Origin: Escherichia coli
Lineage (GTDB): Bacteria; Pseudomonadota; Gammaproteobacteria; Enterobacterales; Enterobacteriaceae
Length of the DNA: 64,000 nt
Assembly (NCBI RefSeq): GCF_051903065.1
Contig: NZ_CP178439.1
Direction: 5' to 3' (one strand)
The position numbers are program-made. Below, piece after piece: positions 33,001 to 39,000 of the stretch (position 1 is the first letter of the stretch; each line of letters begins with the position of its first letter).

Positions 33001-36000
33001 GGCTGGTCCAGAGCTAACTGAGTTAGCGAACTGGCTTGGCGTACCCACGTTTTCAGAAAGGAAAGAGTAAGTTGCATTGCATGAATCTTTCGCAAATTTA
33101 TTTAGCGCTTGCAGTTTGTTTTGGATGTCATTAATCGTTGCAGCACAGTCAGCACAAATAGCTGAAACAGCAACGTTAAAAGCATAGATAGCCGCACCCT
33201 GGGCAATACCACGGGCCACCTGCACAAGCTGGTCCCCGTTGATCATGCTGAAGGACCCAAGAAAAACGTCAATACCATTACAACCGACAGAAGCTTTTGG
33301 AAACGACATGGAAACAAGGTTGGTATTAACGTTTGTTGTTCGGTAAGACATTGACCCGCCAACTATGCCTGTACGGGTTGCTGTGGAAAAGGTGGCCGGG
33401 CTGGTAGACGTCATCATGCCATTGAAAATGTTACGCATTGCGTTGTCTGCATTTGCAGTCGGGGCTAAAATTGCAGCACAAACAGAAAGAGACAAAAGTA
33501 ACTTTTTGAAGTTGAAAACGGCATTACTGCGCATAAGTGCCTCCAAAACTGCCGCCAGCATTGAGATAATTGACCGGATCGGCCGTAGGCATGTCATAGC
33601 CTTCGAGTTTTTGGTCCATTATTTTTTGAAGTAAGAATGGGTCTGATTCCATTTCGGATTTATTAACGGTAATAACGCCATCATCACCGATGGTATATTG
33701 CCTTTTAATATCTAGAGTTGACTGAAACGAAGCGTCATCGATCAGATTCATGCCCTTCGCGGCAAGTATAATAGTGTTCTTTAATTCATCAGCGGAGATC
33801 ATGCCTTCACTAATGCGCTGAGCTGATGTCCCATCCTTTGAAACCAGGAAAATTGTAGGTACCTCTCGAATTTTAAATTGATCAATAATTTGTGCATTGG
33901 GGATGTTAAAATCCTGAAAAAGGCCATTATGCAATGGCCTTCCATCCATACTGATTGGAAGAATATCTACCGAATAATAGTTCTGCATAAATTGAAGTAT
34001 TTGGCTCTCTTCGTGGCAAAACTGGCAAGTACTCTGGAAAAAGAAAAATAAACCTGACTTAGTAAAGATATCTTTCATTACCGTTTGCTGATTTTTTTCA
34101 ACAACAGTGCGGTGAGCATCCAGTGCCACCTTTTCCACTGGTTGCCTGCGTTTTTCAGACATCATCGGGTTTTTAAGAAAATAATCTTTTGATTTGTCAG
34201 AAAAACGCGTACTGATATCCAGCATTAACCTTTGCGCCGTGTAATAACGTGATAGATTTTCTGCGGTAGGGTTATCCATTGCCTGCGTTAACAGTCGAGG
34301 CATATTCTCTTTTAGCCATTTTGAATTTAAATCTACCTTTTCCTCTTTTGAAGGCGAGCTAGCAGCACCGGTTGGTGGCAAAACCTTTTCTTCTTCAGCT
34401 TCGCTTTTTTTAGCAGGATCGTCATACCAGAAGAAACCCTTCTTATAAGCCTGGCCTGATACAAAGGGCGTATCTTTTATTAGGGGTTGCTCAGGGCTGG
34501 CGTGGGCACCAGTAATTACCAAAGACATAAGCAAAACCATCTTTGAAGGCGCTAATGCAATACGAGTCATAGACCGTTCTCCTTTTCTGATGCGGTTATG
34601 ATGGCATACAAAAAAAAGGTTAGAGCTCGTATAGCATGGTCGTTTTTATGTTGAAAAGGACGGAAAAGGAGTGCTGACTAAGAAGATAGTCTCGGTGATG
34701 GAAAGATCATCCATCTTGCACATTGTGAAAAATCCGGTGTAACAAAAACATGGTTTTATCGAATATCTAAAAGCAAATATTGCTTTGAAAACAGGTGTAT
34801 TAAGAGCTGAAAAAAATCATCACCAGTAACGCTGTTTCTATATTTCAAAGAAGGAATAGCTAAGGATCAAAGAAGCGAACTTAGGCAAGAATATAAAATA
34901 TATTAATTGAAAGCGATTAAGAAGTCGTCATGCATAGAAGGTTTTAGAGAACCTAAGTAGTTTTACGTTTTCAACAGAAAAAAAGGTGAACATTTTTTGG
35001 AACGAAGAAAGACTGTATAAAGAAAAATCAAATTATATCTTTACTTGTCAAGAGTTAATATTTAAGTTGTAACTAATATTTGATTGTAAAGCAAACAACA
35101 GAATTTGACTTAAGTCAATATTTAGATTCAGACAAGGCAAGTTTCGCGATATCTTTTTTAAATTTAATCTAATTCTTCTTGAGAATACCTCTCTATGGCT
35201 GAAGCAGTTGAAGATAATCTGCAACGTGGACAATAAGCATCATTTGTCACTGGCACAATGTATGGGCGTTTACATTTTTCGCAGGCACCTAGTTCTTCAA
35301 TTTCTTTCATAGAAGTAAGGATTTCTATTATTTTATTAACTTCCGGTGCGCATACAAAGTATCCCAGATTATGAAGGACACTCATTATTCGGTTGAAGTC
35401 AATTTGCCGAAAACTCGCTTCCGGATTTATTGGATCAAAACCAAAATAGTTAACTGCGACATCAATAACAGCAGAAAAAGCTCGGCGGTTATCTGTGCGT
35501 TTGCTCCAGCCCCGGATACCTTTTTTGAGTTTTGTTTTTGCACCAGGCTCAAAATCGATATTTTCAGCAACATGATTACCGTACAAAATTCGTATTGTAT
35601 TTTTATTTGCCCCAAGCGACATAGTCCTTGCTGCTCGCAATAGAGCATTAGCTTTTGTTTGATCGACCTTTGCCATATTAATAATCCTTTAACATAACTT
35701 TATTTGTTAAAGTGTTGAACACATCCTGACGGTGACTGGTGAACATAGTGTCATAACGTAATAGTTCCATCAAATCATCACTAACTTTTCCTAACCGGAT
35801 GTCAGCAGACAATTCATAAGCCCAGGCAAAAACTTTCGTTTTAAGTGAAACACTCTCTTCAATATGCCCTTGTGAGAAAGCAATTGTACGTGGGAAAAGA
35901 ACGACATCGTTAATTGTTTTTAACGATGAATAACCAATGTCTTTAATAGCATCAGCTGTAGTTGGTTTTAAACCAAAGAAAACACTTACAAACTCTGGTG

Positions 36001-39000
36001 CGAGCATTGAGATAAAGAACACCTGCATAAAGTAGTCATTCTGTATATCAACACATTTAGAACGCAACTCATGAATCTTCTTGGGATTATAGATATCCAC
36101 TGTACCATTCAGAAAAGTCACTTTTTCACCGGCATCGTAAATACCATAGTCAATATCATTTGTATCATATTCACGAATTACATTGGAATCACCGTCCAAG
36201 ACCGCAGAAAAAAACCTCTCCCATGTAATTTCCTTTCCGAGTGTACGCGGAACCAAAAAACTACCTGGACGTGTTTCCACTTCAAAAGCTAAATCAGCGG
36301 CTGTACTAAATCCTTTCCCAAATAGGCGACGCTGGAGAAGAGGAGTCCCAGTTTGATATGCAGAAGATCCATGCACAGGCAATAACATTAAAAATGCACG
36401 GTAACTACGAATAAGCGAAATCTCAGTGCGGAAAAGTTTACCGAGTAAGCTACGAGTTAAATTATCAGATTCTGACATGTGCTGATTGTCCTTGCGCCAT
36501 TACAATTGTTCAAATCTTCAACATGGATTTTTTGTTAGGTGTTCGGTAGGGTGAAAAGTAACTTTTAGTATTTTCTTAAGGCTTGAATAAGCCTTAAATC
36601 TATCCCTTCAACCACACCGCTTACTTGTAACACTTTTTAACCAAACTGACCAGAATTTTATCAAAATTTCTTCGCATGCTAACGAAATGTGAAGCGATTA
36701 AAAAAAAACCTAAATCCAGCCCCTCCCAACGTTGGATTAGAATAACGACGTCTTTCACTGACCGTCATAAACTGACATTTTTACTTTTCATCAACCTCAT
36801 GCTTACATAGGATCACTAAACAAAGAAAAGTGACCCTATGAATACCTCACATAGGGTCACTTATGTTTGAAAAGTGACCCTATGTAATGTCGTCATAGGG
36901 TCACTTTTTATAAAAGTGTCACTATGGACAAAGTTCCATAGGGTCATTTTTTTTGGAAAAGTGGCACTAGATATATGTATAACTTTAATAGAGCAATGCA
37001 CATTATCAAAAGCAATAATCCACAATGGTCATTCCCTCAAAAGTAACTTTAGAGGGTAGCGATGGAAGTGAGGCTAAACTCGCTGTTACTGTTTCTGAAG
37101 GCCCCTCCCGAATGGGGGAAACAGCGAGTGCATTACATCTGTTCAATTCCCTCATCAAAGAGCATTCAAAAATCTTCTGTTCGTGAAAAAAAACGGAAAT
37201 TTCCTCCGGTATAGTAATTTCACATCAGGAGGCGTCATGAGTAATTCGAATCTTATAAGTTCTATAGAGCTAACACGTAAAAATTTACGTGCTCAGATTG
37301 AAGGTTTGCGTGTTGAGGCTGAAGATCTCATTACAAAATACTGGATCAAGTGGAAGGAACGAAACCACCAAGAGATTAACCTTACCCGACATAGCAAAGT
37401 TCCAAAGAGGGAGTATCTGGGTTCTTACGCACCAAAAGTTGAGCTAATTGGTAATGCCAGAAAAGTAACGATCACTTGGCATCAGTTCAGCCCTTATAAA
37501 ACAAGAGCGCCTAGTCACATGTCAAAACGGGTGCAACCAATGAAAAGTGGAAAATATTCTAAGAACTGTTTTGTAAACCATGCCAGCTGGGAATACGAAA
37601 TGATTTCTGAAACGGAAGCATTGCTGGAGCCTTACAGAGAAATGCTTGAGCTCTATCATTCAGCATATATCGAACTTGGACGAAAAATCCGTCAATACTC
37701 AAAAACTAAGGTGGCACAATGACCGACGCAATTATCACGGACAATGAGCGTATTAACATTGAACCAAAAGATGTAATGGTAAAAGGTTCAAATAAAAAGC
37801 AAGGCGTAAACGCTCAAACTTCTACTCAACGTAGACCAGAGCACCAGGGTATGGCCAAAGTTATTATTAACCCCGGCACCCCAGATTTTAACCGGTTTTT
37901 AACTGCCAGAAATGGAGCAGTCATCAGAGGTTTTGATGATGTGAGTATCGCTATTTCCTCTCTCTTTAAAACGGTTGATGCAGTTAAACATCCTGACCTT
38001 GTTCAGGCTATTCAGGATTGGTTCAACGAGCTGCATGAAGAAAACAATAAGATGAAAGAAAATCTTGTTGCTTATATTAAGTCAATTGAGTTCGACAAGA
38101 ATGACTCATTCATGTCATCAACTCAGTTTGTACCTTTCAGTTTTGAACCAGTACAACTCAACTTCAATAACCACAACACCATGAGGTTTTACAAGTACAT
38201 CTTCGAGATGAACCAGCTCATGAACACAATGTATGAGTACAACTCATTGGGTTTACTGGCTGTAAGCGACTATCCGGTTATGTCTCACAACATTATAAAG
38301 AGTATTAATTTATATGTTGAGAATGTGAAAAAGACTCTGAATGTTTCTCGCCGTAAGGATGGGCCATACAGTCCAGCAGAGTTCATCACCAAAGTAATGC
38401 AATATAAAAGTGTGCAGGCATACATTGCAGCCGAACTGTCAGGCAAACGTCGATAAGGTATGATGATGAATTTCAGGGCGCTGTATTTATGTATTAAACG
38501 GATTTTGGGGATATTCTCATCTCAGGAGAATGATGCAACCTCTGTAATGATTGAGGATATATCAAGCCTCTCTCCTTTTGCGCAGATTCTAGGAGATCAG
38601 AAGTACACTGTTCCTGATCATCCAAATCCAGAAGTCCTGAAATTCATCGAGTATCCAACTCGTCCGACGGGCATACAGACATTTAATGAACAGTCAATCC
38701 TGTCTCTGTATCGGGAAAAGCTGCACTCAATTTCAATGATGTTAGCTATCAGCGATAGCGACATCAGGGACGATGCATATACATTTACTAATTTAGTATT
38801 AAAGCCCTTGGTTGAATATGTTCGCTGGATACATCTTTTGCCAGCTTCCGAAAATCATCATCATAATGGTATTGGTGGGTTACTTTCTCACAGCCTGGAA
38901 GTGGCCATACTCTCTTTAAAAAATGCGCATCACTCAGAACTGAGACCAATCGGATATCAAGATGAAGAAGTAGTCCGTAGAAAAGTATATCTCTATGCTG

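Follow-up and report, generated by a model that had tools for sequence, protein, structure and literature searches.

What kind of activator is encoded by the two small genes that lie upstream of the trhF-trhH-trhG operon of IncHI2 plasmids, and how does it relate to the master activators of other conjugative elements? We addressed this question by computational analysis of a 64,000-nucleotide (nt) stretch of Escherichia coli DNA (contig NZ_CP178439.1, RefSeq assembly GCF_051903065.1; hereafter, the window), which is part of an IncHI2 (R478-like) plasmid. The two genes, trhR and trhY, are almost certainly, as judged by sequence comparison, the IncHI2 orthologues of TrhR and TrhY of plasmid R27, transfer activators for which activation was demonstrated in R27. 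The best overall explanation of the locus is, probably, the R operon of an IncHI2 plasmid that encodes a heteromeric activator of the FlhDC class. The function of trhR and trhY is already known, and the window adds no new system; what is new here is the structural hypothesis of an FlhC-type fold for TrhY, along with a far fainter indication that TrhR has an FlhD-like core. The genes in question are the following (aa, amino acids; pI, isoelectric point):

35678-36478, minus strand: trhR, 266 aa, first gene of the R operon
35164-35676, minus strand: trhY, 170 aa, basic (pI 9.0), predicted FlhC-like fold, C-terminal zinc ribbon
33524-34570, minus strand: trhF, TraF-like (TIGR02740, E 2.5e-98)
32119-33597, minus strand: trhH, downstream of trhF
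28157-32110, minus strand: trhG, TraG-N gene, after trhH

The R operon and its counterpart in R27

A sequence-only reading of the window had proposed that the 266-aa and 170-aa genes upstream of trhF-trhH-trhG are co-transcribed and likely encode the transfer activator, in a position like that of TrhR/TrhY. The map of open reading frames (ORFs) confirms both genes and their location, and the distance between them is consistent with the proposed co-transcription: the TAA of trhR and the ATG of trhY are one base apart, and a Shine-Dalgarno-like AAGGA precedes the trhY start, a spacing that fits both co-transcription and translational coupling. The products differ in charge, TrhR being acidic (pI 5.7) and TrhY basic. 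The assignment as transfer activator is upheld by full-length orthology to the proteins of R27, the IncHI1 prototype, and by the R27 literature (PMC7366339); in BLASTP alignments, both without gaps, 206 of the 266 residues of TrhR (77%) and 145 of the 170 residues of TrhY (85%) are identical.

The gene arrangement is equally conserved. The R27 proteins (Gibert et al. 2014, Mol Microbiol 94:1146; PMC7366339) have the same lengths and are encoded within the same synteny that runs from mobI and oriT to trhF-trhH-trhG; the R27 layout consists of a divergent mobI, the 266-aa gene, a 2-nt gap, the 170-aa gene, a gap of about 610 nt, and trhF, trhH and trhG. In the window, a 593-nt spacer separates trhY from trhF, with all these genes on the same strand, and on the opposite side of trhR, in divergent orientation, are mobI (Pfam MobI, E 3.5e-22), a 245-aa ORF and the genes for the MOBH relaxase and the coupling protein. 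The position of the pair, divergent from mobI and upstream of trhF-trhH-trhG, is shared by the window, the annotated IncHI2 plasmid pSTM6-275 and R27. RefSeq labels both products "hypothetical protein"; several NCBI records, among them a 100%-identical partial entry, call the 266-aa protein trhR.

The R operon of R27 consists of trhR and trhY, which are needed together for activation of the tra operons F, H, AC and Z, and a lacZ fusion to the F promoter is induced by trhRY overexpression even at 37 °C (PMC7366339). HtdA counteracts TrhR/TrhY at the protein level, and trhR is silenced at 37 °C by H-NS, along with Hha; this TrhRY circuit is conserved among IncHI plasmids (PMC7366339, PMC9410318), and trhRY is routinely listed in papers on IncHI2 plasmids. 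The window contains the IncHI2 version of the pair, whereas activation, HtdA antagonism and thermoregulation were demonstrated in R27.

TrhY, TrhR and the FlhDC class of activators

The C-terminal cysteine cluster of TrhY, which the sequence-only reading had found reminiscent of FlhC-type activators, is real; the distance between the inner cysteines is 13 residues (KRPYIVPVTNDAY), not the 14 that had been reported.

35221-35283, minus strand: codons of the TrhY Cys4 zinc ribbon, C132-x2-C135-x13-C149-x2-C152

C132, C135, C149 and C152 do not vary in any full-length relative, even at 33% identity. The same four columns are invariant, in register with TrhY and likewise in the C-terminal third, in an alignment of 10 FlhC-family proteins, namely, E. 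coli FlhC, AcaC of IncC and SetC-like proteins from MOBH plasmids of Klebsiella, Citrobacter, Providencia, Aeromonas, Edwardsiella, Pseudomonas and Thiodictyon; a zinc site is predicted. Comparison of the TrhY profile with this alignment using hhalign yielded a score of 29.2 (P 0.0013; without realignment, from 28 zinc-ribbon columns). A custom hidden Markov model (HMM) of the FlhC family ranked the TrhY ORF first among the 485 six-frame ORFs of the window (E 0.0036, with the next at 0.37), via residues 128-158, and detected no further FlhC-like ORF among them.

The resemblance to FlhC extends to the predicted structure. When a template-free AlphaFold2 model of TrhY, built from ten sequences, was compared with 350,542 chains using Foldseek, the first and second matches were two FlhC chains of the Cupriavidus necator FlhDC complex (E 0.2, probability 0.82, template modelling (TM) score 0.42-0.45). 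E. coli FlhC came eighth with the same TM score; every other match had a TM score of at most 0.25, and the aligned span of TrhY was much longer than the zinc ribbon. The FlhC-like character suspected from the cysteine cluster is supported by the top Foldseek matches, at an E-value of 0.2 and with a model of moderate confidence. The model gives moderate support to an FlhC fold, and TrhY is probably a very diverged homologue of FlhC. Compared with the FlhD4C2 complex (PDB 2AVU, 8J56), the predicted fold of TrhY is closest to FlhC, with the Cys4 site at the same C-terminal position, and both systems are two-gene operons in which the partner comes first, the reading frames nearly abut and both subunits are required. 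The differences are that TrhY falls outside the family HMM, has 8% identity in the structural alignment and an inner cysteine spacing of 13 residues compared to 16 in E. coli FlhC, and that the targets of TrhRY are conjugation promoters.

The genomic context of the pair points in the same direction. SetCD of SXT/R391, AcaCD of IncA/C and the SetCD-like pair of Rts1 are master activators of transfer in related MOBH elements with F-type pili (PMC4542580, PMC4207636, PMC10838148). All have D-then-C gene order, C subunits with the same Cys4 ribbon as TrhY and highly variable D subunits; TrhR occupies the FlhD/SetD/AcaD position. Tight coupling with the partner first is common to trhR-trhY (1-nt gap), flhD-flhC (2-nt gap) and acaD-acaC (4-nt overlap); the FlhC-family genes of related MOBH/MPF_F plasmids likewise follow a D gene, and in a Thiodictyon plasmid, an FlhD-like/FlhC-family pair is located directly upstream of traF, as trhY is relative to trhF. 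The surroundings and annotation differ: the SetCD/AcaCD pair follows an SLT transglycosylase gene and is under the SetR or Acr repressors, whereas the IncHI pair adjoins oriT and is under HtdA and H-NS; SetC and AcaC are annotated by NCBI as FlhC family, and TrhY as a hypothetical protein. IncHI was not among the elements listed in a 2015 survey of FlhCD-like regulators on mobile elements, and no link between TrhY and FlhC was found in the literature search, which did not cover Gibert et al. 2014 itself.

For TrhR, sequence-profile searches of Pfam, NCBIfam and the PDB gave no informative match, and no structural match was found. The proteins encoded directly upstream of FlhC-family genes are 115-202 aa long and very diverse; Pfam FlhD matched 5 of 10 such partners at E ≤10. 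Cut into single FlhD-like domains, these partners form a coherent alignment of 17 sequences, and the HMM of this domain (HMMER) scored TrhR no better than shuffled sequences. A weak match was obtained with hhalign, between TrhR residues 138-187 and positions 1-50 of the FlhD-like domain (score 22.3, P 0.0028); in 150 column shuffles of the TrhR alignment, the best score was 20.4, and the reversed alignment scored 9.0. The AcaD-type (P 0.094) and Pseudomonas-type (P 0.028) D families align with the same segment in the same register, centred on an FG motif at 167-169, neither of them significant alone.

35918-36070, minus strand: candidate FlhD-like helical segment, TrhR residues 137-187, weak hhalign match

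An FlhD-like core in TrhR is compatible with the negative HMM results because SetD-like partners of accepted FlhC homologues are likewise missed by the FlhD HMM. Such a core is a weakly supported hypothesis, less likely than not. TrhR is more than twice the size of FlhD (266 versus 116 aa) and not demonstrably FlhD-like, and a test for internal repeats was negative (P 0.49). The AcaD-type partners, for their part, contain two tandem FlhD-like repeats (L011 1010-1618, L015 1154-1756, L016 1007-1615); when the HMM was trained on FlhD, a Thiodictyon protein of 115 aa and only the second AcaD repeats, the first repeats were recovered at E-values between 6e-13 and 5e-8, and the tandem repeats are possibly a covalent mimic of the FlhD dimer.

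Several observations weigh against the assignment of the pair to the FlhDC class. The zinc ribbon is the only segment of TrhY that aligns with the FlhC/AcaC/SetC-like profile by sequence; the N-terminal 125 residues alone gave no significant match to the FlhC family (hhalign P 0.25). The curated FlhC HMM (PF05280) did not match any of 10 TrhY-family members at E ≤10, a threshold at which Pfam returned only assorted zinc ribbons, such as Zn_Tnp_IS91 and DUF5679. NCBIfam gave no informative match for TrhY either, and the PDB sequence-profile search with TrhY did not find 2AVU. The TrhY model itself is of only moderate confidence (predicted local distance difference test, pLDDT, 67.5; predicted TM score, pTM, 0.60), the Foldseek E-value of 0.2 is high, and no operator shared by the TrhRY target promoters was found in the window. 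Furthermore, according to a secondary source, Gibert et al. located TrhR in the membrane and TrhY in the cytoplasm (PMC9598596); FlhD is not a membrane protein.

These observations invite other explanations. TrhY could be an unrelated small regulator with a generic zinc ribbon, its likeness to FlhC being an artefact of the model or convergence, such that TrhR and TrhY would form a family of their own confined to IncHI-type plasmids. We consider this rather unlikely, given that trhRY resembles SetCD/AcaCD in its gene order, its coupling, its need for two subunits and its MOBH/MPF_F context; what speaks for it, in addition to the assorted Pfam zinc ribbons and the modest model and Foldseek scores, is that the sequence similarity to FlhC is limited to about 30 zinc-ribbon residues and that the family is isolated. 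Indeed, a HMMER search of 1.84 billion representative proteins with the TrhY family profile produced 27 matches, all of them IncHI-type proteins or fragments except for three weak ones (two generic zinc-ribbon proteins and one repeat protein), and neither this exhaustive search nor the homologue and profile searches revealed a bridge to FlhC, SetC or AcaC. As delineated by sequence, the TrhY family is real but narrow. The original Tra1 annotation would make TrhR and TrhY structural components of mating-pair formation (Mpf), and a 2024 review citing Lawley 2002 still lists them among the Mpf proteins (PMC11628540). This is highly improbable: overexpression of the pair induces the F-operon lacZ fusion and the two are activators counteracted by HtdA (PMC7366339), and neither a signal peptide nor a membrane segment is present in TrhY, whose predicted fold is of the DNA-binding type.

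Rather than being FlhD-like, TrhR might associate with the membrane and, as membrane-tethered co-activators do, detect or pass on a signal (from temperature, the envelope or the mating state) and thereby license TrhY, with HtdA acting at this step. This is a conceivable alternative, if short of probable: it would accommodate the reported localization of the two proteins, the size of TrhR, its lack of a structural match and its single hydrophobic stretch, residues 150-168 (Kyte-Doolittle 19-residue maximum, 1.74), which may be the basis of the statement on membrane location. That stretch, however, is borderline, interrupted by Pro-Glu and modelled as two short bundled helices, and it lies within the segment that aligns with the FlhD-like core; moreover, the D subunits of accepted FlhC partners are 115-202 aa long, and some are equally undetectable by the FlhD HMM. 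At the other extreme, TrhR-TrhY could be a cryptic, extremely diverged FlhD-FlhC activator, with the FlhD-like core at about residues 137-205 of TrhR, an ancestral module shared across MOBH/F-pilus elements (SXT/R391, IncA/C, IncT and IncHI) and HtdA as an anti-activator of the anti-FlhDC type; this full version is doubtful. The FlhDC-class reading in its general form, with TrhY as the FlhC-like subunit, remains the one that we favour.

Under this FlhDC-class reading, transcription of the R operon at permissive temperature would start at a promoter some 180 nt before trhR, and TrhR and TrhY would be made by coupled translation. TrhY would be the DNA-binding, FlhC-fold subunit with a structural Cys4 zinc site, and TrhR its obligatory partner in the FlhD/SetD/AcaD position. 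Like FlhD4C2, SetCD and AcaCD, the pair would occupy weak promoters around their -35 region and bring in RNA polymerase, activating the F operon (trhF-trhH-trhG, directly downstream), the H operon (mobI-traI-traG, divergent) and the AC and Z operons in Tra2. HtdA would act as an anti-activator, much as FliT or YdiV does towards FlhDC.

Regulatory DNA around the pair

Conservation between the window and R27 is high in the approximately 210 nt that immediately precede trhR, and it extends to the promoter block, the palindrome in the leader and the repeats on the oriT side.

36655-36682, minus strand: candidate sigma-70 promoter of the R operon, TTAGCA-16-TGnTAAAAT (consensus scan), about 180 nt upstream of trhR, conserved in R27
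36554-36566, no strand: trhR-leader copy of a 13-bp palindrome, AAAAGTAACTTTT, 76 nt before the ATG, conserved in R27
34594-34629, minus strand: conserved block before trhF (T-run, TATGCCATCATA, CGAGCTC)
36806-36949, no strand: seven AAGTGACCCTATG 13-mers in alternating orientation, with a spacing of about 22 bp, between trhR and mobI
52307-53491, minus strand: ParB-HTH protein, 394 aa (PF17762, E 7e-6)

The block before trhF consists of a T-run followed by TATG(CC/GG)AT(C/G)ATA, 24-47 nt before the start codon, and, within the 250 nt preceding trhF/traF, no other block is conserved when the window, R27 and two Klebsiella-type plasmids are compared; the remainder of the 593-nt spacer is poorly conserved. 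It is likely, from this conservation, to be the core of the TrhRY-dependent F-operon promoter. A second copy beyond chance was not found in the window.

The palindrome AAAAGTNACTTTT occurs 13 times in the window, compared to 0.33 copies expected (about 40-fold excess), with 13-mers starting at 23588, 24489, 26582, 33494, 36113, 36554, 37039, 40462, 41900, 43630, 48532, 53581 and 53707; there are 12 copies in 45 kb of R27 and 8 in 12.5 kb of the Klebsiella-type Tra1 region. One copy is located upstream of mobI, and another at the trhF/trhH junction in the window, R27 and Klebsiella-type plasmids. The sequence-only reading had placed a copy in the promoter of the pair, and the copy in the trhR leader is indeed there; it is probably not a TrhRY operator. 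We considered the palindrome in that role and rejected it: the trhY-trhF spacer lacks a copy in both the window and R27, that is, the palindrome is missing from the trhF promoter, the standard TrhRY-dependent reporter in R27 (PMC7366339). Instead, copies cluster upstream of the ParB-HTH gene in three lineages: two in the window (at 90 and 216 nt), two in an IncHI1 plasmid (at 94 and 212 nt) and six within 860 nt in a Klebsiella-type plasmid. Because of this clustering, the palindrome is probably the binding site of the 394-aa ParB-HTH protein. KorB of RK2 has scattered 13-bp operators, which the palindrome and the ParB-HTH protein resemble; by this analogy, the set of copies looks like a global regulon of the KorB/operator type or like centromere-like sites, and the copy in the trhR leader suggests a second, unstudied input on trhR. 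A literature search found no mention of the palindrome sequence in this context.

In the AAGTGACCCTATG array, which contains 7 of the 10 matches to this 13-mer in the window (0.99 expected), the sequence is almost invariant between the window and R27, whereas the flanks diverge. The array and the scattered palindrome have the half-site AAAAGTGAC in common. Since oriT is reported to adjoin mobI in R27 and SXT (PMC10838148), we assign the array to the oriT side, where it probably represents relaxosome or oriT sites. An Rfam scan of positions 34300-37300 returned nothing but hairpin matches below threshold, to the repeat array.

Distribution of the pair and its significance

The trhR-trhY pair, in the same order and context, was detected by tblastn in 2,440 PLSDB plasmids, at amino acid identities from 100% down to about 33%; because of this recurrence, the two genes are not chance ORFs. 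The 1.8-kb trhR-trhY region is at least 99% identical in 952 PLSDB plasmids typed as IncHI2/MOBH/MPF_F. The 170-aa proteins fall into three groups, from IncHI2 (at least 95% identity to TrhY of the window), IncHI1 (about 85%) and a large Klebsiella group of the IncHI1B/IncFIB(Mar) type (33-37%). The Klebsiella group has the same synteny with an extra 180-aa ORF before traF (L002 6530-7072, L003 6536-7078), which has no Pfam match and of which no remnant was found in the trhY-trhF spacer of the window; in these plasmids, a 192-nt gap that holds a copy of the palindrome separates the trhR-like and trhY-like genes. The most distant relative (P0058) is a remnant truncated by an insertion sequence (IS).

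Disrupted versions of the pair were observed as well. In the IncHI1-type E. coli plasmid pE16EC1016-4, typed as "mobilizable", frameshifts break both trhR and trhY (L004 3179-4512), and broken products are frequent in the protein database: a 176-aa TrhR with 810 members and a 112-aa TrhY that lacks the zinc ribbon, with about 250 members (P0030, P0012, P0013). Judging from their sequences, these truncated products suggest a widespread lineage with an inactivated transfer activator. IS1 or ISKpn26 is inserted in the 1.8-kb trhRY region of the otherwise identical IncHI2 plasmids NZ_CP039440.1, NZ_MF135535.1 and NZ_CP043034.1, where the interrupted pair is presumably inactive.

Away from the transfer genes, positions 1-22100 of the window are a mosaic of resistance genes and ISs, with four equal-length IS6-family (IS26-like) transposase ORFs at 1071, 3078, 14077 and 21363, an ISCR clade Ia transposase (16600-18093), floR (19225-20439) and a Tn3 transposase fragment (13216-14622). 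Two further ORFs gave matches below the cut-off: a 633-aa ORF (10539-12440, minus strand), which at its N terminus weakly matches the family of retron Eco8 effector endonucleases (E 3e-7), and a 487-aa ORF (5471-6934, minus strand), with a match to eukaryotic-type glutathione synthase.

IncHI2 plasmids are major carriers of mcr, extended-spectrum beta-lactamase and heavy-metal resistance genes, and it is through the TrhR/TrhY pair that temperature gates their transfer. If TrhY has an FlhC fold, the zinc-site cysteines, the complex with TrhR, a class II operator at trhF and the mode of action of HtdA become direct questions. If the FlhDC-class reading is true, the IncHI activator would join the class of FlhDC, SetCD and AcaCD, and the regulation of IncHI transfer would be unified with that of SXT/R391 and IncA/C elements.

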